64,000 nt of DNA, taken from the NCBI GenBank assembly GCA_963834375.1, contig CAWIBM010000002.1, forward strand, positions 972,919-1,036,918. The letters are read 5' to 3'. The translations under genes were made by a program, and so were the position numbers. This stretch comes from an uncultured Acidimicrobiia bacterium (lineage in GTDB: Bacteria; Actinomycetota; Acidimicrobiia; Spongiisociales; UBA5794). The first letter of the stretch is position 1, and the number at the start of each line of letters is the position of its first letter. Positions 7,409 to 59,888 of this stretch are shown here, one piece after another. The notes beneath the pieces were generated by a model. That model was not told the origin of the DNA, searched no databases, and saw only the letters and a list, made by a program, of their open reading frames with translations.

Positions 7409-7530
7409 CAACTTTGAGCACTTTGCATCGAATAGCGAGGTAAACCGCTCAAAGTTGTGCGGCGTAGAGCGAGGTGTTTCAACCTTGAGCACTTTGCATC
7501 GAATAGCGATGTCAACTGCTCAAAGTTGTG
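7409..7530. repeat. Tandem pair of nested-palindrome elements (CAACTTTGAGC...GCTCAAAGTTG arms around CATCG-AATAG-CGATG). Same family as 53316-53436
   Basis: Two ~50-bp units with a 72-bp period. Outer arms are 11-bp inverted repeats, the inner arms 5-bp. Seen directly. Confidence 0.85.
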
Positions 7531-10927: not shown

Positions 10928-11188
10928 TCAGCGACGCACCGGCTCGATCGACTCCGGCCCGGCCCCGGAACGCCCGACCCGACGTTGCTCCTTCCACCAG
11001 CAGCCACGGTGCCAGTGCCTCCGGAGATCGGGTGCCAACTCCGGCACCACGACGACGTGACCGACGCCCTGCTCGATCCAGTGGGAGCAGCCGGGGCAGA
11101 GATACGGTTTGCGGGCCTGATAGGGCTGGACCGACGAGACGACGTCCTCGCCGAACGGCGTGGCGCCGCCTTCGTGCCCGGGTGCCAT
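10928..11188 (-). CDS. Hypothetical Cys-containing small protein (possible zinc ribbon)
   Basis: Intact 86 aa: '...YLCPGCSHWIEQG...HWHRGCWWK...'. I recognise no family. Confidence 0.35.
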   Translation of the reverse strand: MAPGHEGGATPFGEDVVSSVQPYQARKPYLCPGCSHWIEQGVGHVVVVPELAPDLRRHWHRGCWWKEQRRVGRSGAGPESIEPVRR

Positions 11189-11191
11189 GGG

Positions 11192-11302
11192 TCAACCGAA
11201 GAAGCCCCACGCCACAAGGGCCAGCGTGAGGACGACGAAACCTGCCACCAGGACGACGTCGATGGTCGAGACGCGTTGCTTGCGGAAGGGGTTGAGGCCC
11301 AT
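11192..11302 (-). CDS. Small membrane protein (36 aa)
   Basis: 'MGLNPFRKQRVSTIDVVLVAGFVVLTLALVAWGFFG'. Its start codon directly abuts repeat element A. Confidence 0.45.
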   Translation of the reverse strand: MGLNPFRKQRVSTIDVVLVAGFVVLTLALVAWGFFG

Positions 11303-11396
11303 GGGCACAGAGGCTACGCCGTCAGGCGGAGACTCGGCGATGGGGGCTGGGGGTCCCCCATCGCACCCGTGATGAGGCGTCAGCCGAAGAGCCATG
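11303..11396 (-). ncRNA. ~90-nt conserved structured 5'-leader element, copy A (inverted copy at 45339-45427)
   Basis: 'catggctcttcggctgacgcctcatc...gcgatgggggacccccagcccccatcgccgagtctccgcctgacggcgtagcctctgt' read on the minus strand, ending at the ATG of the small membrane protein. It contains a 10-bp stem gcgatggggg/cccccatcgc. ncRNA is the closest schema type; regulatory RNA versus DNA operator is unresolved. Confidence 0.55.
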
Positions 11397-25262: not shown

Positions 25263-25383
25263 TCGCCGACCCCGGCAACCCCCTCCTCGTCTGCCGTGCA
25301 GGCCTTCGGCCGTGTCGCAGCCACTCCTCCCCCGTGGGGGGAGGAGAAACAAGACATCGGAGGGCCGTACCATTGACCCTGTC

Positions 25384-29102: not shown

Positions 29103-30500
29103 ATGGACTACAACCTGCTCGATGCCCTCGAGCTCCTCGAGCGAGAGAAGGGCGTGCCCGCCGACGTGATCCTCGACGCCCTGGCCAACGCCCTGGTGTC
29201 CGCCTACAAGCGCACCCCGGGCGCCGCCGAAGAAGCGCGGGTGACCATCGACGCCGACACCACCGAGATCATCGTCTACGGCCAGGATCTCGACGAGGAC
29301 GGCAACGTGGTGCGGGAGTGGGAGGACACCCCGGACGACTTCGGCCGCATCGCCGCCCAGACCGCCAAGCAGGTGATCCTGCAGCGGCTGCGCGACGCCA
29401 AGCGCGAGCAGGTCTTCGAGCTGTACGAGGGCCGCGAGGGAGACCTGGTGACCGGCATCGTCCAGCAGTCCGACCACCGGTACGCCATCCTCGACCTGGG
29501 CAACGCGGAGGCGATCATGCCCGCCTCCGAGCGGATCCCCTACGAGAAGCTGGAGCGCGGCAACCGGGTGAAGGCATACATCCTCGAGGTCCGCGGCGAA
29601 GGCAAGGGTCCGCAGATCGTGATCAGTCGAAGTCACCCGGAGTTCATCAGGTCGCTGTTCGAGCTCGAGGTGCCGGAGCTCGTCGACGGCGACGTCGAGA
29701 TCAAGGCGATCGCCCGTGAGGCGGGCCATCGCACCAAGATCGCCGTGCTGTCCAACGATCCCAACGTCGATCCCGTAGGGGCCTGTGTCGGCGCCCGTGG
29801 CTCCAGGGTCCGCCAGGTGGTCAACGAGCTGAGGGGCGAGAAGGTCGACATCGTCGAGTGGCGCCCCGAGGCGGCTTCCTTCCTGGCCGAGGCGCTGTCC
29901 CCGGCTCGGGTCAAGGAGGTGCGTCTCGACGACGAGAACCGGGTCGCCACCGTGATCGTTCCCGACCACCAGCTGTCGCTGGCCATCGGCAAGGAGGGAC
30001 AGAACGCCCGTCTCGCCGCCCGGCTGACCGGTTACAAGGTCGACATCCGCTCCGAGAGCCAGGACCTGGGCCTCGATGTGGAAGAGGCCGCTGTCGCGCC
30101 GGCGACAGCCGCCACCGACGAGGGGGCGATGTCACCGCAGGCGGCGAAGAGGGCGACGACAGCGCCGTCGCGGATGACGCGGTGGTCGCGGATGACAGCG
30201 CCGTCGCGGATGACGCGGTGGTCGCGGATGACAGTGCCGTCGCCGATGACAGTGCCGTCGCGGATGACGTGGTGGTCGCGGATGACAGCGCCGTCGCCGA
30301 TGACAGTGGTCGGTCGCGGATGACAGTGCCGTCGCCGATGACAGTGCCGTCGCGGATGACGTGGTCGGATGCGCCGTCGCGGATGACGCGGTGGTCGCGG
30401 ATGAAGCGGTGGTCGCCGATGAAGCGGTGGTCGCCGATGAGACCGGCGACGACGACGCCGCAAACGACGAGGTCGACGAGGATCAGCCCGCCGGCGCCTG
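29103..30500 (+). CDS. nusA: Transcription termination/antitermination factor NusA with C-terminal acidic tandem-repeat tail (frameshift near 30115)
   Basis: The N-terminal, S1 and KH domains are intact ('[20 protein letters not shown]...'). After a G5 run at ~30118 the sensible frame becomes '(A/S)(V/A)VADD' x~12 and ends '...[28 protein letters not shown]'. Confidence 0.85.
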
Positions 30501-30552: not shown

Positions 30553-32652
30553 TTGGCGAAGCTACGGGTGTACGAGCTGGCACGAGAGCTTGGACACGAC
30601 TCCAAGGATGTGCTGGCGCGTGTCCACGAGCTCGGCATAGAGGCCAAGACCGCCTCGTCCGGTCTCGACGACGATGCCGTCGCCCTCGTCCGCCTGGCGT
30701 ACGAGGACGCCTCGGCAGGCGCCGTCGCCGGCGAGCCGGCGGCCGGCGACGAAGTGCCGATCGCCACCAGAGACGAGGACACCGAGACCGACACCGAGCC
30801 GGAGCCCGAGTCCGAGCCCGAGCCGGGACCCGAGCCCGAATCGAGACCCGAGCCGGAGCCCGAGTCCGAGGCAGAGGAGGACACCCTCATCTCCGTCAAG
30901 GAGGGCGTCACCGCCGCCGAGTTCGCCCGACAGATCGGGGAACGAACCGGTGAGGTCGTGAAGGCCCTGATGATGATGGGCGAGATGGTCCCGGGGGGTG
31001 GTGCCATCCCGGTGACGGCGCTCGAGCCCCTGGGGGCCCGCTTCGGGTACCAGGTGCTCGTCGACGAGGCGGAGCCTGTCGAGGCGGAGCCCGTCCGCGG
31101 CCCGCACCGCGTCGAGTTCGAGGACGACCCTGCCAGCCTGCGGCCGAGGCCGCCGGTGGTCACCGTGATGGGCCACGTCGACCACGGCAAGACCAGGCTG
31201 CTCGACACCATCCGCACCACCAACGTGGTCGCCGGGGAGGCAGGGGGCATCACCCAGCACATCGGCGCCTACCAGGTGAAGGCCGGCGACGGCCAGACGA
31301 TCACCTTCATCGACACGCCCGGGCACGAGGCGTTCACCGCGCTGCGCGCCCGCGGGGCCAACGTCACCGACATCGTCATCCTCGTCGTCGCCGCCGACGA
31401 CGGGGTCAAGCCGCAGACCGTCGAGGCCATCGACCACGCCAAGGCGGCAGGGGTTCCCATCATCGTGGCCATCAACAAGATCGACCTGCCCGCCGCCGAC
31501 CCGAACTCGGTCAGGGCCGAGCTCACCCAGCACGGCATCGTCGTCGAGGACCTCGGCGGCGACGTCGTGTCGGCCGAGGTGTCGGCGCTCGACGGGCTCG
31601 GGGTCGACGAGCTGCTCGAGATGGTGGCGCTGGTCGCCGAGGTCGGCGAGTTGCAGGCCAACCCTTCGGCACCCGCCGTCGGCACCGTCATCGAGAGCCA
31701 GCTCGAGGTCGGCAGAGGCCCTGTCGCCACCGTCATCGTCCAGCGGGGAACCCTGAAGCCGGGTGACGCCCTGGTCGCCGGGTCGGTCGCCGGGCGGGTG
31801 CGGGCGCTCTTCGACGAGAACGGCGTGAGGCTCATCAACGCCGGCCCGAGCACCCCGGCGGTCGTCATGGGGTGGGACGAGGTCCCCGCCGCCGGCGACA
31901 TGTTCGAGGTGGTGAAGAACGAGCGCTCCGCCCGCAAGCTGGCCGAGGCCAAGGTGGGTGAGCAACGCAGCCATGACCTGATCGTCCCCACGGCCACCGA
32001 GCGGCTGGGACAGCTCCTCGAGCAGCTGCGCACCCGCGACGACGCCGAGCTGCGCATCGTGGTGAAGGCCGACGCCCACGGATCGCTGGAGGCGATCCGT
32101 GACGCCGTGGCGAAGATCAAGCGAGAAGACGCCGCCGTCCACATCATCCACGCCGGGGTCGGGGGCATCACCGAGAACGACGTCAGCCTCGCCGAGGCGT
32201 CGGAGGCGATCGTCTACGGGTTCAACACCCGCCCGGATGCCGGCGCCCGCACCGCGGCCAAGGATCGCGCCATCGACATCCGCACCTTCCTGATCATCTA
32301 CGAGCTGTTGGAGGACATCGAGTCGCTCCTGGTCGGCGAACTGGCCCCGGAGGAGGTCGAGACCTTCCTCGGCTCGGCCGAAGTCCGGGCGACGTTCCGC
32401 TCGCCGCGGTTCGGCACCATCGCCGGGTCGTACGTGACCGACGGTGACATCAACCGCAACGCAAGGGCCCGGCTGGTCCGCGACGGAGTGGTGGTGTACG
32501 ACGGGCGGATCGCCTCGCTCCGTCGCTTCAAGGACGACGTGGCGAGCGTGAGCTCCGGCTTCGAGTGCGGCATCGGTCTGGAGAACTTCCGTGACATCAA
32601 GGAAGGCGACTTCATCGAGTCGTACGAGATCAGGCAAGTCGCCCGTACCTGA
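30553..32652 (+). CDS. infB: Translation initiation factor IF-2
   Basis: Intact 699 aa: '[18 protein letters not shown]'. The N-terminus has EPEPES low-complexity. Confidence 0.93.
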
Positions 32653-42676: not shown

Positions 42677-42854
42677 AAGCCGGCTCGTTCGAACGCATGA
42701 AGGGCCCTCCCGGAGACGGGAGGGCCCTTCAGTGTCTTCTCTCTCCTCCCCCTCTGGGGAGGAGGGGCTGCAGCTCGGGCCGAAGGCCTTCACGGCAGAC
42801 GAGGAGGGGGTCGGGGGCGCCAGGCGAGTTGTGAGGCCCGGTGCGTGTGTTGTG

Positions 42855-43178: not shown

Positions 43179-43208
43179 CTTGTCAGTCGAACATATGTTC
43201 GACTAGGG
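43179..43208 (+). promoter_or_regulatory. SOS promoter with LexA box TCGAACATATGTTCGA (43187-43202) between a -35-like TTGTCA and a -10-like TAGGGT
   Basis: Perfect 16-bp palindrome matching the actinobacterial LexA consensus TCGAAC-N4-GTTCGA. It lies ~35 bp upstream of imuA' and ~125 bp upstream of divergent dodecin. Confidence 0.8.
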
Positions 43209-43234: not shown

Positions 43235-43915
43235 GTGTCAGGCACCATGGCGGCGACCAGAGTGGTGACCACCTCCATGACCGGCGCGGGACCGCTCAGG
43301 TCGCCCACCTGGCCGGGCGAGGTCACTTCGTTGGTCCCCGGCTCCGGGCAGGTGGTGGGGTTGCGGGGCGTAGCCGGCATGGGGCTCACCCGGCTGGGGC
43401 TGTCGCTGGTGGCCGGCGCCGCTCCCGCGGGGATGATCGCCTGCGTCGACGTGCGGGGCTGGCTGTGCCCGGCGGCGGCCTGGGAGGTGGGGATCGACCG
43501 CGACCGCCTGGTGGTGGTGCGCTGTGACGACCCGGTCACCTGGAGCCGGGTGGTTGCCGGGCTGCTCGACGGGATGGGTGCCGTCTACGCCGAGGTGCCC
43601 CGCCGGGTGCCGGATGCCCCGCTGCGCACCCTGGCCGGGACGGTGCGGCGCCGGGGCACCCCGCTGGTGCTCAACCCGCTGTCCGGGGAATTGCCCGGCG
43701 GGGTGGCCCAACTCACGTTGGAGGGGCGCCGGGTGGTCTGGGAGGGGACCGAGGCGGGTCATGGCCGCTTGGCACGCCGGCGGTTGGTGCTGGAGGCGTC
43801 TGGGAAGGCGGTCAGGGGGATGACCCGGATCATCGAGATGGAGGACCATGGAGCGGACGCTCTGCGTGTGGTACCCGGACTGGGCGCTGCGCCGGCCCGA
43901 CACGCCGCCGGGTGA
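43235..43915 (+). CDS. imuA': ImuA' (RecA-fold mutasome component)
   Basis: 226-aa ORF immediately upstream of an imuB homologue and behind a LexA box. RecA-like 'GLRGVAGMGLTRLGLSLVAGAAPAGMIACVD'. Confidence 0.65.
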   Translation: MSGTMAATRVVTTSMTGAGPLRSPTWPGEVTSLVPGSGQVVGLRGVAGMGLTRLGLSLVAGAAPAGMIACVDVRGWLCPAAAWEVGIDRDRLVVVRCDDPVTWSRVVAGLLDGMGAVYAEVPRRVPDAPLRTLAGTVRRRGTPLVLNPLSGELPGGVAQLTLEGRRVVWEGTEAGHGRLARRRLVLEASGKAVRGMTRIIEMEDHGADALRVVPGLGAAPARHAAG

Positions 43916-45329
43916 GCCCGCCCAGGCGATCGGCTCCGACCACCGGGTGGTGGCGGTCAACCGGGAGGCTGCCCTCGGCGGGGTGACCGTTGGGATGCGC
44001 CGCCGTCAGGCCGAGGCCCTGTGCCCGGCGGTCCGTACCCTGGTGAGCGATCCCACCGACGAGGCGATCAGGTTCGAGCCGGTGGTGCGGGCGATCGAGG
44101 GCCTGATCCCCAGGGTCGAGGTGGTGCAACCCGGGCTGCTGCTGGCGCCGGTCACCGGGGCGGTCCGCTACTACGGCGACGAGTGGTCGATGGTGGCCAG
44201 GGTGGTGGAAGCCATCGAGGCGGTGGCCGGGCCTGGCCACAGGATCGGGCTCGCCGCCGGCCCCTTCGCCGCCCGTTGCGCCGCCGAGATGGCGGTGGGG
44301 GAGCCGCTGGTGGTCGAGGACGACCACGACTTCCTCCGCTCGCTGGACGTGGCATCGCTGGGTCGGGAGGAACTGGCCGCCACCTTCCGCTGGCTGGGGA
44401 TCACCACCTTGGGTCAGCTCGCCGACCTGCCTCGCCAGGCGATGGTGTCGCGCTTCGGCGCCGAGGGGCTGGATGCGCACCGATTGGCCCGGGGTGAGGA
44501 TCGACCTCCGCGACCCAGACAGGTACCGGTCGACCTGGGGGTCGAGGAGGTGTTCGACCCTCCGATCGACAACCTCGACCGGGCGGCCTTCGCCGGCAGG
44601 GCACTGGCCCACCGGCTGCTGGCCGGGGCCGGCCGCCAGGGGTCGACCCCGTTCCGCGTCGACGTCGAGGCGGAGTCTGCCGCCGGTGTCATCCGATCGT
44701 GTGTCTGGCGCAGCCCGGACCCGTTCGATGAGGCGTCGTTGAGCGACCGGGTGCGCTGGCAGCTGGCCGCCTGGCTCGACGAGACCAGAAGGGGTGACGG
44801 GCCGGGTATCGAGGGTGGAGTGGTGCGACTGCGGCTGACCCCGGCAGACCTCTCCGACGAAGGGCGCCAGCTCGCCCTCGACGAGGACGCCGGGCGCGAC
44901 GCCCACTCCCGGCGCACCCTGGTGCAGACCCAGGCGCTGGTGGGCCAGGACCAGGTGCGGGTTGCCCGTCCCCAGGGCGGGCGGGACCCGGGCGACCGGG
45001 TGTCGTGGGCACGCTGGGACGACCCGCCCGCCTCCCCGGCCCGTGACCCCGCAGATCCGTGGCCAGGGGCGATCCCGGCACCGTCGCCCGCCCTGGTCCC
45101 CGACACCGCTACCCGTTTGGTGGTCGAGTGGGACGGGGGGATGCCGGAACGGGTTCGGCTGGGCAGTCGTTGGGAACCGGTGCTGTCATGGGCTGGCCCA
45201 TGGCGCCGGACCGGCCGCTGGTGGAGCGGCGAGCCCCCTGCCGACCGCTACCAGATCGTCACCTCGGCCGGAGCCTTCCTCTGCGAGGTGAGGGACGGGA
45301 CCACCTACCTCACCGGCATCTACGACTGA
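43848..45329 (+). CDS. imuB: ImuB (catalytically inactive Y-family polymerase homologue)
   Basis: 'MERTLCVWYPDWALRRP...' is the characteristic ImuB N-terminus. 493 aa. Confidence 0.75.
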   Translation: MERTLCVWYPDWALRRPDTPPGEPAQAIGSDHRVVAVNREAALGGVTVGMRRRQAEALCPAVRTLVSDPTDEAIRFEPVVRAIEGLIPRVEVVQPGLLLAPVTGAVRYYGDEWSMVARVVEAIEAVAGPGHRIGLAAGPFAARCAAEMAVGEPLVVEDDHDFLRSLDVASLGREELAATFRWLGITTLGQLADLPRQAMVSRFGAEGLDAHRLARGEDRPPRPRQVPVDLGVEEVFDPPIDNLDRAAFAGRALAHRLLAGAGRQGSTPFRVDVEAESAAGVIRSCVWRSPDPFDEASLSDRVRWQLAAWLDETRRGDGPGIEGGVVRLRLTPADLSDEGRQLALDEDAGRDAHSRRTLVQTQALVGQDQVRVARPQGGRDPGDRVSWARWDDPPASPARDPADPWPGAIPAPSPALVPDTATRLVVEWDGGMPERVRLGSRWEPVLSWAGPWRRTGRWWSGEPPADRYQIVTSAGAFLCEVRDGTTYLTGIYD

Positions 45330-45338
45330 TCTCACTTT

Positions 45339-45427
45339 CATGGCTCTTCGGCTGACGCCTCATCGCAGTGCAATGGGGGACCCCCAACCCCCATCGCCGA
45401 GTCTCCGCCTGACGGCGTAGCCTCTGT
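45339..45427 (+). ncRNA. ~90-nt conserved structured 5'-leader element, copy B (~93% identical to the reverse complement of 11303-11396)
   Basis: Direct comparison gives 5 substitutions and 1 indel over ~90 nt. It ends ~24 nt before the RBS (GAGGAG) and GTG of the STAND-cyclase gene. ncRNA is the closest schema type; regulatory RNA versus DNA operator is unresolved. Confidence 0.55.
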
Positions 45428-45450
45428 TTCTCCTCCTCCCAGGATGAGGA

Positions 45451-48318
45451 GTGGCCGGCAGTCGGGGCGTAGAAGACAGGAAACCTCGTAACCTGCCCGC
45501 CGTGCTCGTCGAGAGGGACCGGCAACTCGACCAGATGGCCGCGGTTGCCGGTCAGGCCGGAGACGGCCGCGGCGGCGTCGTGCTGGTGAGTGGCGAAGCC
45601 GGGATCGGCAAGACGACCGTGGTCAACGAGTTCCTGGCTCGCCACCGCGGAGCGGTCGTCCTGTGGGGGTCCTGCGAGGACCTGGCCACCCCACGCACGT
45701 TCGGTCCGTTGCACGACATGGCGCGGCATGATCCAGGCCTTCTCGCCGCCTTGCGCGACGGGAGCCACCTCGACGTCTACGAGGCGTTGGTCGCCGCCCT
45801 GTCTCCTCCCACCGGCCTGGCGGTGGCGGTGATCGAGGACGCCCACTGGGCCGACCAGGCAACCATCGATGCCATCCGCTACGTCGGGCGCCGCGCCGCC
45901 CACGGCCACGGCGTGCTGGTGGTCACCGCACGCACCGAGGCGTTGGTGGGAGATCATCCGCTCCGCCTTGCGTTCGGTGGGATCCCGCCGGGCTCGGTGG
46001 TGAGGATCGAGCTGCCGGCGCTGACCCGAGAAGGCGTGGTGGCGCTGGCGGGCGACCACCCGGTCGACGAGGTGCTCGCCATCACCGGCGGCAATCCCTT
46101 CTTCGTGACCGAACTACTCGACAGCGGCCTCGACCTGCCGCGCAGCGTGGTCGACTCGACCCTGGCTCGGGCGGCGGACCTGTCGCCGTCGACCCGGGAC
46201 GTGCTCTCCGTGGTCGCCGTGGTACCTGGCGAGACGGAGCGGACGATGGTCGACGCCCTCGAGCTCGATCTCCCGGCTGCCCTGGCCGAGGCAGAGCCTG
46301 CGGGGCTCATCCTCACCACGACCACGGCGATCCGGTTTCGCCATGAGCTGGCGCGCCGGGCCTACGAGGCGTCGCTGGCCTCCGACCGTCGCCGTGACGA
46401 GAACCGGCGGGTGTTCACCCACCTCGAGGGCACCGACGCCGATCCCGCCCGGCTCGTCCACCACGCCGAGCAGGCCGGGATGCTCGACGGGGTCGCCCGC
46501 TGGGCGCCGGTGGCGGGACGTGAGGCGGCGGCCGTCGGCGCCCATAGGCAAGCGGTTGAGCACCTGCAACGCGCCGGCATCGTCCTCGATCGCTACCCGC
46601 TGGAGGAGCAGGCGTCCCTGCTCGAGCTCCTGACGTGGGAGCTATACGTCCTGGGTCGGTTCGGCGCCGCCCGCCATCCGTCGGAGCGGGCGGTCGCCAT
46701 CAGGGAGCAGCTCGGGGAACCCGCCGCCAGAGGCAACGCCCTCCGGCTCCTGTCGAGGGTCCACTGGGTACGCGGCGAGCGTCACGAGGCCGACCGGCGT
46801 GCCGAGGAGGCGATCGCCGTTCTCGAGCCGCTGGGTGAGAGCCGGGATCTCGCCATGGCCTACTCGACCCGTTCCCAGCTGGCGATGCTCAGCGCCGAGG
46901 ACGAGGAGGCGATCCGCTGGGGCACCGTCGCCGTCGACATGGGACGGCGCGTTGGTGACCCACAGGCGCTCACCCACGCCCTCAACAACGTGGGGACGGC
47001 GCAGGCGCACCAAACCGATTCCGCGGAGGGGATCGAGCTCATCGTGCAGGCTCGCCGCATGGCGATCGACAACGGGCTGGACGAGGACGCCGTCCGGGCG
47101 TGGACCAACGAGGTGTGGAGCCTGCTCCGGTCCCACCGCAATCAGGAGACCGGCCCGCTTCTGGAAGAGGCGATCGGATTCGCCCACGACCGGCAGCAGG
47201 ACGGGTTCGAGGCCTACCTGACCGCCACCCGCTCGATGCACCGGCTCGCCGTCGGTGACTGGGACGGAGCCGAGTCCGACGTTCTCTGGGTCCTCCAGCA
47301 GCCCGCGGTGTCCGGGACCAGCGACTTTCCGGCGGCGAGCACCTGGGGCACCCTGCTCGCCCGACGTGGGGAGTTCGCCGAGGCCCGGGACGTCCTCGAC
47401 GCCGGCTGGGAACGGGCCGTCGAGACCCTCGAGCTGCAGCGGACCCTTCCGATCGCCACCGGGATCGCCGAGCTGGCGTGGCTCGAGGGGCGTCCCCTGG
47501 ATGGCATGTATGCGTTCAGCCAGATCTCCGACGACCTCGCCGCTCGAGGCACCTCATGGGAGCGGGCGGAGGTGGCGATGCTCCAGCGGCGGGCCGGGCT
47601 CGAGACCCCGGCTCCCCTCGACGTGCCGGAGCCGTACCGGCACTGGTTCGACGGCGACCACCGGGCGGCGGCGGAGGCGTGGCGCAGCATCGGCGAGCCG
47701 TATGCCGCCGCCTCCGCCCTGGCCGACTCGGGCGGGATCCAGGACCTCGAAGAGGCGGTCGAGGTCATGGAACGACTGGGTGCGGTGGCGGCGGCCGCTC
47801 GCGCCGCCGCCGATCTGGAGCAGGCGAAGGCGCGACGTCGCCGGCTCGCCACGGTGCTGTTCACCGACGTTGTCGGGTCGACCGAGATGGCGGCTCGGAT
47901 GGGAGACGACTCATGGCGCCGGTTGCTCGACGAGCACGACGCCACCACCGCCCGGGTGGTGGCACGCCACGGGGGCCGGGTGGTGAGCGGGACCGGCGAC
48001 GGTGCGATGGCGAGCTTCGAGTCCCCGTCATCGGCCATCGACGCCGCCGTGGAGCTGGTCCGGGAGCTATCCGGCGCCGGGGTCACCATCCGCGCCGGTC
48101 TCCACACCGGGGAGGTCGTTCCCCGCGGCGACGACATCGGTGGGATGGCGGTGCACATCGCCGCTCGCGTCGGGGCGGAGGCGGGTGCGGGCCAGGTGCT
48201 GGTGTCCAGCACCACCCGCGACCTGGTGGTGGGCGGCGCTCGGACCCTGACCGACGTGGGCACTCGCCGGCTCAAGGGCGTGGCCGACGAGTGGCTCCTC
48301 TACGAGGTGTCCGGCTGA
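45451..48318 (+). CDS. STAND-type P-loop ATPase / TPR-like helical array / C-terminal class III nucleotidyl cyclase (CHD) fusion
   Basis: Intact 955 aa. Walker A 'GEAGIGKTT', Walker B 'LAVAVIEDAHWAD', a long helical-repeat middle, and C-terminal 'LATVLFTDVVGSTE...GTGDGAMASF...IAARV...LKG'. Confidence 0.8.
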   Translation: MAGSRGVEDRKPRNLPAVLVERDRQLDQMAAVAGQAGDGRGGVVLVSGEAGIGKTTVVNEFLARHRGAVVLWGSCEDLATPRTFGPLHDMARHDPGLLAALRDGSHLDVYEALVAALSPPTGLAVAVIEDAHWADQATIDAIRYVGRRAAHGHGVLVVTARTEALVGDHPLRLAFGGIPPGSVVRIELPALTREGVVALAGDHPVDEVLAITGGNPFFVTELLDSGLDLPRSVVDSTLARAADLSPSTRDVLSVVAVVPGETERTMVDALELDLPAALAEAEPAGLILTTTTAIRFRHELARRAYEASLASDRRRDENRRVFTHLEGTDADPARLVHHAEQAGMLDGVARWAPVAGREAAAVGAHRQAVEHLQRAGIVLDRYPLEEQASLLELLTWELYVLGRFGAARHPSERAVAIREQLGEPAARGNALRLLSRVHWVRGERHEADRRAEEAIAVLEPLGESRDLAMAYSTRSQLAMLSAEDEEAIRWGTVAVDMGRRVGDPQALTHALNNVGTAQAHQTDSAEGIELIVQARRMAIDNGLDEDAVRAWTNEVWSLLRSHRNQETGPLLEEAIGFAHDRQQDGFEAYLTATRSMHRLAVGDWDGAESDVLWVLQQPAVSGTSDFPAASTWGTLLARRGEFAEARDVLDAGWERAVETLELQRTLPIATGIAELAWLEGRPLDGMYAFSQISDDLAARGTSWERAEVAMLQRRAGLETPAPLDVPEPYRHWFDGDHRAAAEAWRSIGEPYAAASALADSGGIQDLEEAVEVMERLGAVAAAARAAADLEQAKARRRRLATVLFTDVVGSTEMAARMGDDSWRRLLDEHDATTARVVARHGGRVVSGTGDGAMASFESPSSAIDAAVELVRELSGAGVTIRAGLHTGEVVPRGDDIGGMAVHIAARVGAEAGAGQVLVSSTTRDLVVGGARTLTDVGTRRLKGVADEWLLYEVSG

Positions 48319-48322
48319 GCCG

Positions 48323-49060
48323 TCAGCCGATGGTGCCGATTGGGAGGGCGGAGGCGACGGCGGCGTGTACCCGGTTCCTCAAGTCGTTGATGTCGAGCAA
48401 CGTGAGCTCGGAGGTCGGGATCGGCTCATGGACGGTGGCCGTTGCCCGAGACGGGTACACCAGCTTGGAGCCGGGCGGCCACGCCTCCCACGTCCCGTGG
48501 ATGGTGACCGGCACCACCGGCAGGTCGTTGGCGATGGCGATGCGGAACGCGCCCTTCTTGAACTCGGCCAGTACGCCGTTGTCGCTGCGGGTGCCCTCGG
48601 GGAACACGATGATCGAGTGCCCGCGGCCCTTGGCCTCGGCGACGCCCTGGTTGATCTGGGCATGGGCGGCCGAGGATGCCTGCCGGTCGGTCTCGATGAT
48701 GCCGATGCGCCGCATCGCCTGCGCCAGCACCGGGATGCTGAACAGCTCCTTCTTGGCGAGGAACCGGATCGGCACCGGGGCGGTCAGCAGCATGACCGGG
48801 ATGTCGTAGTTGGACAGGTGATTGGCGGCGAACACGTATTGCCGGTTCGGGTCGATCCGGTCCCGACCCTCGATCTGGAGGTGCACCGGGGCGGTGCCCA
48901 GGAACAGCCGGCTCCACAGGCGGATGGTGGACTCGATGAGCCGGCTGTCCTTGTCGACCAGCGAGAGGATCAACACCACGGCAGCGAAGACCAGGGTGAA
49001 GGCGAGGAACGGCCCGAGGAGCAACACGGTGCGCAACCCGGGGAGGAGTCGGCGGTTCAC
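48323..49060 (-). CDS. plsC: 1-acyl-sn-glycerol-3-phosphate acyltransferase
   Basis: 'FAANHLSNYDIPVML' (HxxxxD variant NHxxxxD) and 'IVFPEGTRS'. Confidence 0.85.
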   Translation of the reverse strand: MNRRLLPGLRTVLLLGPFLAFTLVFAAVVLILSLVDKDSRLIESTIRLWSRLFLGTAPVHLQIEGRDRIDPNRQYVFAANHLSNYDIPVMLLTAPVPIRFLAKKELFSIPVLAQAMRRIGIIETDRQASSAAHAQINQGVAEAKGRGHSIIVFPEGTRSDNGVLAEFKKGAFRIAIANDLPVVPVTIHGTWEAWPPGSKLVYPSRATATVHEPIPTSELTLLDINDLRNRVHAAVASALPIGTIG

Positions 49061-49094
49061 CCGGCTAAGTTACCCCACTGCCCGGAGGCTCTCT

Positions 49095-50276
49095 ATTCGG
49101 CCCATCACGCAGTTGCAGGCGCGTAGCCACGCCCTCGCCGCCCAAGGCTTCGGCGTTCCCCGACCAGCGGGGCGGATCGACGTGCGCCACTTCAGGCGGC
49201 TGTTCGACACGGTGGGCCTCCTCCAGCTCGACTCGGTGAACGTCCTCACCAGGGCCCACTACCTACCCGCGTTCTCCCGGCTCGGGCCCTACGACCGGGA
49301 GGCTCTCGACCAGTACACCGTGGCCTCGGGCGAGGTGTTCGAGTACTGGGCGCACGTCGCCTCGCTGCTCCCCATCGACACCTTTCCCCTCTACCGCCAT
49401 TTCATGCAGGAGCAGCCGGAGTGGCGTGCCATCCGTCAGCTCGAGGCCGAGCACCCCGGCTACGTCGAGTCGGTGTACCAGGAGGTGGCGGAGCACGGCC
49501 CGCTGACGGTGTCGGACCTGGCGAACCCCGGCACCCGGACCGGCTCCTGGTGGGGCTCCGGCCGCGGCAAGCTGGCTCTCGAGTGGCTCGTGATCAGCGG
49601 ACGACTCGCCGCCTGGCGGGACCGCAGCTTCACCAGGGTGCACGACCTGCCCGAGCGGGTGTACCCGGCGGCGGCGCTGGCGGCCGAGGTGCCGGACCGC
49701 CAAGACGTCTACCGGGACCTGCTGCTGCGCGGCGCCCGCCACCACGGGATCGGGACCGCGGTAGACCTGTGCGACTACTACCGCATCCGCGTCCCCGAGG
49801 CGCGGCCCATCCTGGCGGAGCTCGTGGCGAACGGCGACCTGCAGCAGGTCGAGGTCGAAGGGTGGCGAGGGCCGGTGTACCTGCACCCCGAGTCGACTCC
49901 GTTGCGCCGGCCGCGCGGCACCACGCTACTCAGCCCGTTCGACCCGCTGGTGTGGCACCGCGACCGGACGGAGCGGCTGTTCGGGTTCTTCTACCGCATC
50001 GAGATCTACACGCCGAAGGAGAAGCGGGTCTACGGCTACTACACGTTGCCGTTCCTGCTCGACGGCGCCCTCGTGGGCAGGGTCGACCTCAAGGCGGATC
50101 GCAAGGGGTCCCGGTTGCTGGTGCAGGGAGCTCACGCCGAGGACGGCGTCGACCTCCGGCACGTGGCCGGTCGGCTGAGCACCGAGCTGGAGGCGATGGC
50201 TCGCTGGCTCGCCCTCGGTGAGATCTCGGTGGCGGCCAACGGGAACCTGGCCGGTCCGATCCGCACCGCCCTCTGA
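49095..50276 (+). CDS. YcaQ/AlkZ-family winged-helix DNA glycosylase (DUF1006)
   Basis: 'LQLDSVNVLTRAHYLPAFSRLGPYDREALDQY...GEVFEYWAHVASLLPID...' matches the HTH_42/YcaQ family. The start codon is uncertain. Confidence 0.65.
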   Translation: MRPITQLQARSHALAAQGFGVPRPAGRIDVRHFRRLFDTVGLLQLDSVNVLTRAHYLPAFSRLGPYDREALDQYTVASGEVFEYWAHVASLLPIDTFPLYRHFMQEQPEWRAIRQLEAEHPGYVESVYQEVAEHGPLTVSDLANPGTRTGSWWGSGRGKLALEWLVISGRLAAWRDRSFTRVHDLPERVYPAAALAAEVPDRQDVYRDLLLRGARHHGIGTAVDLCDYYRIRVPEARPILAELVANGDLQQVEVEGWRGPVYLHPESTPLRRPRGTTLLSPFDPLVWHRDRTERLFGFFYRIEIYTPKEKRVYGYYTLPFLLDGALVGRVDLKADRKGSRLLVQGAHAEDGVDLRHVAGRLSTELEAMARWLALGEISVAANGNLAGPIRTAL

Positions 50277-53315: not shown

Positions 53316-53436
53316 CAACTTTGAGCGAGTTACATCGCTATTCGATGCAGCGCGTCAAGGTTTGCGTGATGCGGTCGGTTGATCTCCAACTTTGAGCGCC
53401 TTTCATCGCTATTCGCTGCAAAGTGCTCAAGGTTGG
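53316..53436. repeat. Tandem pair of nested-palindrome elements, reverse orientation. Same family as 7409-7530
   Basis: 'ccaactttgagcgcctttcatcgctattcgctgcaaagtgctcaaggttgg' is the reverse complement of a 7409-7530 unit with few changes. Two units with a 70-bp period, in a convergent intergenic region. Confidence 0.85.
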
Positions 53437-53473
53437 ATCATGCCCTTGCCGGAGTGTCCACGAGCGCGGTCCG

Positions 53474-58000: not shown

Positions 58001-59057
58001 ACCGCATCAGGTCCGTCCACTCCTGGATCCACGCCTCCCGGTTGGCCTCGATGTCGCCCGGGGGCACCGTGAGCGGGTCGTCGACGCGGGCGGCGTGCTC
58101 CACGAAGACGTCCGGGAGGGTGGTGCCCTCCACCGCCGGGAACACGAACATGTTGAGCGGGATGTCCTCCTGGAAGGTCTCCGACAGCATGAAATCGACG
58201 AGCTGGCGGGCCGCCTCCTCGTGCTCCGTCCCGTCGAGGATCCCGACGAACTCGACCTGGCGGAAGCACCCCTCGGTCATCGACGCCGGTGGGCGCTTCC
58301 GCCGGTGGGACCTCGGCGAAGTACACCTCGGCCGGGGGAGAGCTGGCGTACGACACCACCAGCGGCCGGTCGCCGGTGTCGCTGGTCGGCGGTGAAGGCC
58401 CCGTTGTAGGCCTCCTCCCAACCCGAGGTCACCAGCACGTCGTTGGTGTCGAGCGCCTCCCACCAGTCCTGCCAACCGTCGACGCCGTACTGGGCGATGG
58501 TCCCGAGGAGGAAGGCGAGGCCCGGTGAAGAGGTCGCCGGGTCCTCGACGGCGAGCATGCCTCGGTAGGCAGGATCGATCAGGTCGTCGAGCGTCTCCGG
58601 TGGCGCGACCCTCGGCGGCGGCCAGGGCGGCGACGTCGTAGTTGACGCATACGTCCCCGTAGTCGATCGGGGTCACCCGGTGCTCCGGGTCGAGTTGCAG
58701 CTCCTCGGGGACGCCGTCGACGCCGGGGGCGTCGTAGGGGACGAAGAGGTCGGCGTCGAGGGCCCTGGTGAGAAAGGTGTTGTCCACTCCGAACAGGACG
58801 TCGGCCACGGGGTTGTCAGCGGTGAGGATCGCCTGGTTGAGCACCACGCCGGCGTCCCCACCGGATAGGAGCTCGACGGTGATCCCGGTTTCCGCGGTGA
58901 AGGCCTCCAGGACCTCGTCGGATACCAGGAAGGAGTCGTGGGCCATCAGGGTGATGGACACCGGCCCGCCGGTGGCATCTTCGCCACCGGCGCAGGCGGC
59001 GAACAGCAGGGCAGCGACCACGACCGACCCGACGAAGGCGCGCCCGATCCTCACGAC
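57999..59057 (-). CDS. ABC transporter substrate-binding lipoprotein (thiamine/Fe3+ family), several apparent frameshifts
   Basis: '[23 protein letters not shown]' is a lipobox signal. '[11 protein letters not shown]...' and the C-terminus '...[20 protein letters not shown]' lie in different frames. Confidence 0.65.
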
Positions 59058-59767
59058 CCGGACTCCTCGCCCGCCGGCTCGTGGATCACCAGGAGCGATC
59101 CCTGGCGTACCGTCACCGTCGCCCGCTCCGCGGTGAGCTCGTTGCTCACGCCGCGGGTCGAGCCGGCCTCGAGGACGGCACCGTCGAGCGGCCACCGCAG
59201 CCCGGCCGTGGTCACATCACTGGCAGGCCCGGGGGCGGCGAGCAGCGAGACGAGGTCGCCCGGCGCTCCTTCGACGACGACCTCCCGGCCCGGCCGTGCC
59301 ACCTGCACCTCGGTCGTGCCCACCATCCATCGGATCTCGATGCCGGCATGGCGGCCGGCGGCGACCAGGGCGGCGTTGCCGAGCAGGTGGCTGAGCCGCC
59401 CGCCACCGCCGCCGAGGACGGCGCACTCGGTGAAACCGCCCTCGACCACCCGCTGGAGGGCGAGGTCGAGGTCGGTGCGGTCCTTGTCGACCGGGTGCCG
59501 CTCCACGGCGACACCGTCGGCCTCGGCTGCGGCGAGCCCTTCGGCCGACACCGAGTCGAGGTCGCCGATCAGGATGTCGACGTCGATGCCGGCCGACCGG
59601 GCCGCGTCGAACCCGGAATCGACGGCGACCACCGTGCCCGCGGCGGCGAGCCGCCGCAGCACCGCCCGGTCGACCCCGTCACCGCCGGCGATGAGCACGG
59701 CGAGGCGGCGACGAGCGATCGGAGCCGGGGCCGACGAAGCGGCCGGCAGGGGATTGGTCGTTTCCAC
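59051..59767 (-). CDS. Thiamine pyrophosphokinase
   Basis: Intact 238 aa: 'LIGDLDSV', 'DKDRTDLDLAL', 'GGGGGRLSHLLGN'. First gene behind the TPP riboswitch. Confidence 0.75.
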   Translation of the reverse strand: METTNPLPAASSAPAPIARRRLAVLIAGGDGVDRAVLRRLAAAGTVVAVDSGFDAARSAGIDVDILIGDLDSVSAEGLAAAEADGVAVERHPVDKDRTDLDLALQRVVEGGFTECAVLGGGGGRLSHLLGNAALVAAGRHAGIEIRWMVGTTEVQVARPGREVVVEGAPGDLVSLLAAPGPASDVTTAGLRWPLDGAVLEAGSTRGVSNELTAERATVTVRQGSLLVIHEPAGEESGS

Positions 59768-59771
59768 TCGC

Positions 59772-59888
59772 TCCCTCCGCTGGTGTGATCCAGATCAGGT
59801 TCCACGGGTCGGTGACGTTCGCCTGCGGCGCCGGTCACCCTCTCAGCTCGGCGTTCCCGAGCTCCCCGGGGGTGGGTTGTCCCATTCA
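59772..59888 (-). ncRNA. TPP (THI-box) riboswitch
   Basis: Minus-strand RNA 'GGGGAGCUCGGGAACGCCGAGCUGAGAGGGUGACC...GUGGAACCUGAUCUGGAUCACACCAGCGGAGGGA' carries the CUGAGA and ACCUGAUCUGGAU...ACCAGCG...GGGA hallmarks. Its 3' GGAGGGA overlaps the RBS of the TPK GTG. Confidence 0.85.

Follow-up and report, generated by a model that had tools for sequence, protein, structure and literature searches.

A MalT/LAL-type STAND ATPase of an uncultured Acidimicrobiia bacterium carrying a C-terminal class III cyclase homology domain in place of the LuxR output domain

What does a protein do that joins a STAND ATPase and a TPR-like arm to a C-terminal class III cyclase homology domain (CHD), and does its position directly behind an SOS cassette tie it to DNA damage? 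The question was raised by one gene in a 64,000-nucleotide stretch of an uncultured Acidimicrobiia bacterium (contig CAWIBM010000002.1, positions 972,919 to 1,036,918); this whole stretch is called the window below. Domain, structure and comparative analyses showed that the gene encodes a MalT/LAL-type STAND protein whose LuxR helix-turn-helix (HTH) output domain is exchanged for a CHD. The open reading frame (ORF) and the parts of its product are listed here, with residues (aa) numbered from the called start; NOD is the nucleotide-binding oligomerisation domain and AF2 is AlphaFold2.

45451-48318, + strand: STAND-TPR-CHD ORF as called (955 codons, 955 aa, GTG start, stop codon at 48316-48318)
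45502-45504, + strand: GTG (V18), probably the true start codon; the product would have 938 aa and the N-terminus MLVERD
45505-45924, + strand: AAA_16 P-loop NTPase domain (aa 19-158; Pfam E 2.7e-19)
45592-45618, + strand: Walker A, GEAGIGKTT (aa 48-56), invariant in homologue alignments
45823-45855, + strand: Walker B, VAVIEDAHWAD (aa 125-135), invariant in homologue alignments
45925-46443, + strand: rest of the NOD, with sensor-I Arg161, helical domain and winged-helix domain (columns invariant in 45 homologues)
45931-45933, + strand: sensor-I Arg161
46087-46104, + strand: GGNPFF of the NOD helical domain
46336-46350, + strand: FRHEL of the winged-helix domain
46444-47838, + strand: TPR-like all-helical sensor arm (aa 332-796, ~460 aa, ~22 helices by AF2 secondary structure)
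47842-48300, + strand: class III CHD of the LipJ/Rv1900c type (aa 798-950; Pfam, NCBIfam and PDB matches), with key residues D806, S846, D850, D895, H902, R906 and K942-G943

The G+C content of the window was ~70%, and the ORF showed the strong third-position bias typical of real genes in it (G+C at third codon positions, GC3 = 0.88). An identical protein (P0001) was present in public databases, where it already carries the label "class 3 adenylate cyclase". A partial copy, 98% identical and cut by the contig end, was found in a metagenome-assembled genome labelled "uncultured Acidimicrobiia bacterium" (L006).

Pfam matches to AAA_16 and Guanylate_cyc, with only weak TPR_12 matches between them, agreed with the domain order that the first-pass annotation had read from the sequence (STAND NTPase, TPR, C-terminal CHD). 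In the alignment of 45 homologues, GEAGIGKT, IEDAHWAD, R161, GNPFF and RHEL were invariant. Walker A had been read correctly as GEAGIGKTT; Walker B, given at first pass as hhhhDD, is hhhhED (VAVIEDAHWAD). An AF2 model built on the 45-sequence alignment had a mean predicted local distance difference test (pLDDT) score of 87, with values >85 in the NOD, >90 in the body and >90 in the TPR arm. Its best fold match in the PDB was the STAND-TPR protein 6MFV (E 4e-16, 725 columns), and further matches were CED-4, MalT (8BOB) and the Rv1900c CHD; the sensor arm was also matched by the TPR structures of LGN/Pins. The protein of 6MFV, PH0952 of Pyrococcus horikoshii (PMC6468293), has the same layout of NOD and TPR sensor; it is 15% identical to the query and carries another effector. 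A NOD with all motifs and a C-terminal repeat sensor arm, the marks of a STAND NTPase of the MalT/LAL clade, were both present.

Residues 1-785 were 37-45% identical, over ~80% of the query, to hundreds of AAA_16-TPR-GerE/LuxR proteins of ~860 aa, "MalT" being among their JGI names. These LAL/MalT-like regulators of Acidimicrobiia, Thermoleophilia and other Actinomycetota share with the query Walker A and B, the sensor-I Arg, GxP and the RHEL of the winged helix, and the switch logic of the two is presumably alike. The 45-sequence alignment runs to L776-G777-A778; thereafter the relatives continue into a linker and the LuxR HTH, whereas in the query a helix and the CHD follow, giving an output by second messenger and not by DNA binding. 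A GerE/LuxR HTH was searched for in the query with Pfam and gave no match, which on this criterion places it outside the LAL regulators. The protein is a LAL-type STAND with a swapped output, since its body matches the AAA_16-TPR-LuxR proteins and the divergence begins exactly after LGA.

The CHD was assigned by several matches, which place it much nearer to one subfamily, that of LipJ, than to the general Pfam model. Guanylate_cyc (PF00211) matched aa 798-943 with 36.1 bits against a gathering cut-off of 21.9, which places the domain in this family. The CHD part scored 171 bits in the NCBIfam LipJ model; the cut-off of that equivalog (NF058673, lipase/adenylate cyclase) is 800 and only model positions 290-448 were covered, so the whole protein is not a LipJ equivalog. 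The CHD of Mycobacterium tuberculosis Rv1900c (LipJ; 1YBT/1YBU) matched with E 1.2e-41 and 50% identity over 156 positions, and many hydrolase-CHD proteins of ~440 aa were 51-58% identical to the query CHD. LipJ has the same His, Asp, Arg and KG residues; it differs in its N-terminal alpha/beta-hydrolase, in the absence of a STAND module and in an Asn at the Lys site, where the query has Ser. The catalytic positions were read from the 1YBT alignment, in which D302, N342 and D346 of 1YBT fell as expected.

Metal-binding Asp: D806 (FTDVVGST) and D850 (GDGAM) here; D302 and D346 in Rv1900c
Lys site: S846 here; N342 in Rv1900c
Specificity Asp site: D895 here; D395 in Rv1900c
Asn site: H902 (GGMAVHIAARV) here; H402 in Rv1900c
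Transition-state Arg: R906 (GGMAVHIAARV) here; R406 in Rv1900c
Terminal K-G: K942-G943 here; K-G in Rv1900c

Both metal-binding Asp residues and the terminal K/R-G motif are therefore kept (D806, D850, K942-G943), as the first-pass annotation had stated. Of the three deviant residues that it named, Ser at the Lys position and His at the Asn position were found as described; the supposed change of the specificity Asp to Met was an error of register, D895 being present in the 1YBT alignment. To our knowledge, the specificity Asp stands seven residues before the Asn-site residue in all class III cyclases, and D895 is seven residues before H902, like D395 in Rv1900c. The position of M899 was an ordinary hydrophobic site, occupied by I, L, V or M in 142 of 148 relatives.

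These 148 relatives were the best CHD matches when 1.84 billion cluster representatives were searched exhaustively. Both metal-binding Asp residues were conserved in all of them (148/148), and Arg906, Gly943 and a Lys or Arg at 942 in 147 each. His occupied the Asn site in 129 and Asp the Asp site in 119, while the Lys site held K (90), N (20), D (15) or S (5). The commonest Lys/Asp/Asn-site triplet was K/D/H; that of Rv1900c is N/D/H and that of the query S/D/H. Half of the canonical adenine-specifying Lys/Asp pair is present (Ser846 with Asp895), and of the canonical transition-state Asn/Arg pair Arg906 is present with His902 at the Asn position. By this comparison, His at the Asn site is the norm of the subfamily and no mark of a dead enzyme, and Ser846 alone is unusual. 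The earlier reading as a non-canonical or pseudo-cyclase had leaned on all three deviant residues, the misplaced M899 and this His among them.

The fusion itself was rare. Among the top 120 homologues, only P0001-P0008 had a C-terminal CHD, and four (P0035, P0100, P0106, P0111) had an N-terminal one. With aa 640-955 as a junction query, three of the 1.84 billion cluster representatives aligned across the TPR-CHD junction (P0002, P0008 and the fragment P0121). A tblastn search of GTDB, with one genome per species, gave a C-terminal CHD in none of the best 80 loci listed except L006; L058 was seemingly full-length, yet its CHD stood at the N-terminus. As found in these searches, only a few lineages of Acidimicrobiia appear to have this particular fusion. 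A C-terminal CHD also occurred in the AAA_16 proteins P0146 (1069 aa), P0137 (640 aa) and P0265 (1347 aa). They share the domain order and the CHD subfamily with the query (CHD 46-58% identical); their bodies are just 27-31% identical, and they are independent or very old fusions. The order from AAA_16 to a C-terminal CHD has thus arisen more than once.

The mycobacterial proteins Rv0386, Rv1358 and Rv2488c unite a MalT-type ATPase, a LuxR HTH and a cyclase domain, which in Rv1358 stands at the N-terminus (PMC3466318; bioRxiv 10.1101/2024.03.06.583649). Proteins of this type resemble the query in joining a class III CHD to a MalT-type ATPase and TPR; they have the CHD at the N-terminus and retain the LuxR HTH at the C-terminus, whereas the query has a C-terminal CHD (aa 798-950) and no HTH. 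The difference of order from the Rv0386 type, noted at first pass, was thus upheld. In the STAND proteins with a query-like body and an N-terminal CHD (P0035, P0100, P0106, P0111), the CHD was only 32-37% identical to that of the query, which points to a separate fusion event.

Two further architectures were observed. In P0156 (708 aa, probably a fragment), TPR is followed by a GerE/LuxR HTH and a C-terminal LipJ-type CHD in tandem (aa 483-693); this tandem may be an intermediate architecture. The 47%-identical homologue P0006 (L002, 8001-10760) and the syntenic P0005 both come from metagenome assembly ERZ25039469, and P0006 may represent a paralogue of the STAND-CHD fusion in decay.

The annotated start at 45451 is doubtful. 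In two relatives, L086 and L087, the reading frame is closed by a stop three codons before a conserved GTG, and residues 1-16 of the called protein were unconserved in relatives, with pLDDT <50; on these grounds the GTG at 45502 is probably the start. The relative P0005 was called from the same GTG. One further feature belongs to this start.

45489-45494, + strand: TAACCT, a -10-like hexamer of the TANNNT type, 7 nt upstream of the GTG at 45502

TAACCT was invariant 6-7 nt before the conserved GTG in five syntenic loci (the window, L001, L006, L086 and L087), and nearly all of the aligned region between imuB and the gene was variable except this hexamer. TANNNT is the actinobacterial -10 pattern, and the spacing of TAACCT matches that expected for a leaderless mRNA. 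From this promoter knowledge and the one hexamer, TAACCT may be a candidate promoter of the gene's own that would give a leaderless mRNA. A simple scan of 45000-45700 gave no promoter and no terminator consensus. A TANNNT hexamer was also seen 6-8 nt before the start codon in two of three distant homologues (TAGGGT in L002, TACGAT in L004).

The reading that we favour, with moderate confidence, is a ligand-gated adenylyl cyclase activated by oligomerisation, that is, a MalT/LAL-type STAND with a LipJ/Rv1900c-type CHD in place of the LuxR domain. The protein has the architecture, the intact ATPase motifs, the CHD set of metal-binding, transition-state-Arg and phosphate-binding residues, and the exchanged effector; a ligand, oligomerisation and the product are proposed by analogy. 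STAND proteins rest as closed ADP-bound monomers, and an inducer on the sensor arm causes exchange of ADP for ATP and multimerisation (PMC6468293). In bacterial class III cyclases, activity requires a homodimer, whose interface holds the active sites (PMC4174876). In this reading the gene is probably transcribed from a promoter of its own, with the TAACCT box immediately before the GTG at 45502 as the candidate. At rest, the NOD would be closed with ADP, the protein would be monomeric and its single CHDs would be inactive, because the class III active site needs a CHD dimer. A ligand would bind the TPR arm, the NOD would swap ADP for ATP and then multimerise, and neighbouring C-terminal CHDs would pair and make cyclic AMP (cAMP). 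Some side activity with cyclic GMP would be possible, given the Ser at the Lys position.

Several points weigh against this reading. The seven closest homologues vary at the Lys site (S/A/T/D/A/Q/K) and at the Asp site (D/G/S/G/E/D/D), so that the choice of substrate is unreadable from the sequence. The homologue P0006 has a truncated CHD with no KG motif, which shows that the domain can decay. The CHD portion of the AF2 model was of low confidence (pLDDT 43-87), and the idea of a promoter and leaderless mRNA is built on one conserved hexamer.

The position of the gene suggests a second reading, in which it would be the third cistron of a LexA-controlled imuA'-imuB operon and would tie DNA damage or the activity of the mutasome to cAMP signalling. 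The core chromosomal order of the region was lepB ... rseP-like peptidase, nusA, infB, (rbfA), DHH phosphoesterase, truB, kup, rpsO, pnp and a dodecin gene, and after the dodecin gene imuA', imuB, the STAND-CHD gene, a convergent acyltransferase gene and an AlkZ-like glycosylase gene followed. The SOS cassette directly upstream, proposed at first pass, is real.

43187-43202, + strand: LexA (SOS) box TCGAACATATGTTCGA, before imuA'; no other GAACN4GTTC occurs in the window
43235-43915, + strand: imuA'-like gene, overlapping imuB; its orthologues carry PF27531 MT3502_N
43848-45329, + strand: imuB (Pfam IMS match)

A LexA box of the same type stood at the same place in L001, L006, L086 and L087. 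Coupling to the SOS response is favoured by this perfect box before imuA' in all five loci, by the position of the gene on the same strand directly 3' of imuB (85-175 nt from imuB to the conserved start in the five loci), by the lack of a terminator-like site between imuB and the gene in the consensus scan and by the AlkZ-like gene nearby. Since no terminator consensus was found, transcription from the LexA-controlled imuA'B operon may read through into the STAND-CHD gene. However, the five loci encode proteins of 77-100% identity and are syntenic all the way from kup to the rhodanese gene, so the adjacency in these 77-98% homologues carries no independent weight. Three homologues of 43-47% identity lay in other contexts (mscL/clpB, acyl-CoA dehydrogenase and the nuo operon), and a search upstream of them found no LexA box. 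Because of these unrelated contexts, there is no conserved link of the STAND-CHD gene to imuAB; the co-occurrence in other genomes that the first-pass annotation had looked to was confined to close, fully syntenic relatives. The spacer between imuB and the gene is variable and takes repeat insertions, and the conserved -10-like box suggests a promoter of the gene's own. Taken with these points, SOS coupling through a shared operon is unlikely.

A narrower version would place the recruitment of the STAND cyclase into the LexA-controlled imuA'B unit in this lineage only. The sensor would then be made only after DNA damage, and its TPR arm would read a damage or mutasome cue and give a pulse of cAMP. 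Such a recruitment would give the SOS response a second-messenger output; we hold it to be quite improbable.

The AlkZ-like DNA glycosylase gene occupies 48822-50276, 3 kb downstream of imuA'B, and no dnaE2 is adjacent to imuA'-imuB. The LexA box, imuA'B and the AlkZ-like gene form a small DNA-damage neighbourhood that is kept in L001, L086 and L087.

A third reading concerns the CHD itself, which could be catalytically dead and serve as a dimerisation or nucleotide-sensing module only. The Ser for the canonical Lys and the His for the canonical Asn would fit this, as would the low Pfam score (36 bits), the decayed CHD of P0006 and the lack of constraint on the base-contacting positions among orthologues. 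However, the metal-binding Asp residues, Arg906 and K942-G943 are conserved in six of the seven close homologues and in 147-148 of the 148 subfamily members, and the CHD is 50% identical to that of the Rv1900c enzyme, in which the same His is present. Adenylyl cyclase activity is reported for Rv1900c, together with a guanylyl cyclase side activity of ~7%, and its N342 and H402 are said to be dispensable for activity. PDB 1YBU is the Rv1900c CHD crystallised with a substrate analogue. By analogy with this reportedly active enzyme and its dispensable N342 and H402, a dead CHD is unlikely, and the whole reading as a pseudo-cyclase is hardly probable.

The weakest reading is an anti-phage STAND of the Avs-like or Pycsar-like kind, hinted at by the first-pass annotation, in which the TPR arm would sense a phage protein and the cyclase would signal or deplete nucleoside triphosphates; the STAND-plus-effector layout is typical of Avs systems and there were weak PADLOC matches to PycC (best 30.6 bits, aa 798-866), but these extend over no more than the N-terminal, generic half of the CHD, PADLOC gave no match to Avs or another defence model, the neighbours are imuB and an acyltransferase gene with no adjacent effector gene activated by cyclic nucleotides as Pycsar would have, the locus is a conserved, syntenic housekeeping region and not the defence island expected of Avs, and the body is most closely related to transcription regulators of the LuxR type, which together make it very improbable.

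The first-pass annotation had also placed a conserved leader element in front of the gene. The sequence in question was a dispersed repeat.

45339-45428, + strand: dispersed, hairpin-forming repeat of ~90 nt, within the 121-nt gap from imuB to the called ORF
11306-11395, - strand: second copy of the repeat, 97% identical, upstream of a 36-codon ORF

The repeat was absent at the orthologous site in L006, where the locus is 98% identical. In metagenome contigs, copies were found at new sites in L088 (600-684) and L090 (1000-1060), and L089 held the orthologue of the second copy. No RNA family was found in the repeat with Rfam, either at gathering thresholds over the whole window or at permissive E-values in 45250-45520, and its fold was no better than that of shuffled sequences (z = -1.1). 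As an intergenic element that is missing in L006 and recurs at unrelated loci, it was rejected as a leader of the STAND-CHD gene. The family has imperfect terminal inverted repeats, GGCTGACGCC ... GGCGTAGCC, with a central ATGGGGG/CCCCCAT hairpin; candidates are an element like a miniature inverted-repeat transposable element, an element like the repetitive extragenic palindromes, or a small RNA. Directly downstream of the second copy, the 36-codon ORF (11191-11301, - strand; MGLNPFRKQRVSTIDVVLVAGFVVLTLALVAWGFFG) encodes a hydrophobic product that looks like a single-pass membrane peptide, and the next ORF (10928-11188, - strand) had no Pfam match. The locus of the second copy had 95.6% DNA identity in L089.

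Other elements were observed in the window. A pair of inverted repeats at 25278-25371 and 42718-42811, with 34 nt at 97% and 42 nt at 76% complementarity, lay just 3' of the M50 peptidase gene and just 3' of pnp; they may belong to a second family of dispersed repeats or be terminator-like hairpins that the two sites share. Near-palindromic repeats of ~50 nt, CAACTTTGAGCACTTTGCATCGAATAGCGAGGTAAACCGCTCAAAGTTG, were found at 7409-7457, 7480-7528, 53316-53349 and 53387-53440, in two intergenic regions 46 kb apart. These repeats are unusually A+T-rich for the genome; they may serve as operators or form another small repeat element. A thiamine pyrophosphate (TPP) riboswitch (Rfam RF00059, 59.4 bits; 59754-59878, - strand) lay upstream of the minus-strand ORF 59051-59767. 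Two periodic repeats of low complexity were present, one of 18 nt at 30091-30481 (3' end of nusA and the intergenic stretch behind it) and one of 12 nt at 30782-30876 in the 5' part of infB, with a Pfam Trypan_PARP match (acidic/proline repeat).

The protein is a rare but unsurprising reshuffle of familiar parts; it opens no new category and, taken alone, makes no connection between cAMP and the SOS response. Effector swapping is seen here in a clean natural case, in which the same NOD-TPR switch carries either a LuxR HTH or a cyclase domain. Since class III cyclases are active as dimers only, a C-terminal CHD on an oligomerising STAND would be a simple switch from ligand sensing to cAMP, and the protein could serve as a model for the activation of enzymatic effectors by STAND multimerisation outside immunity.

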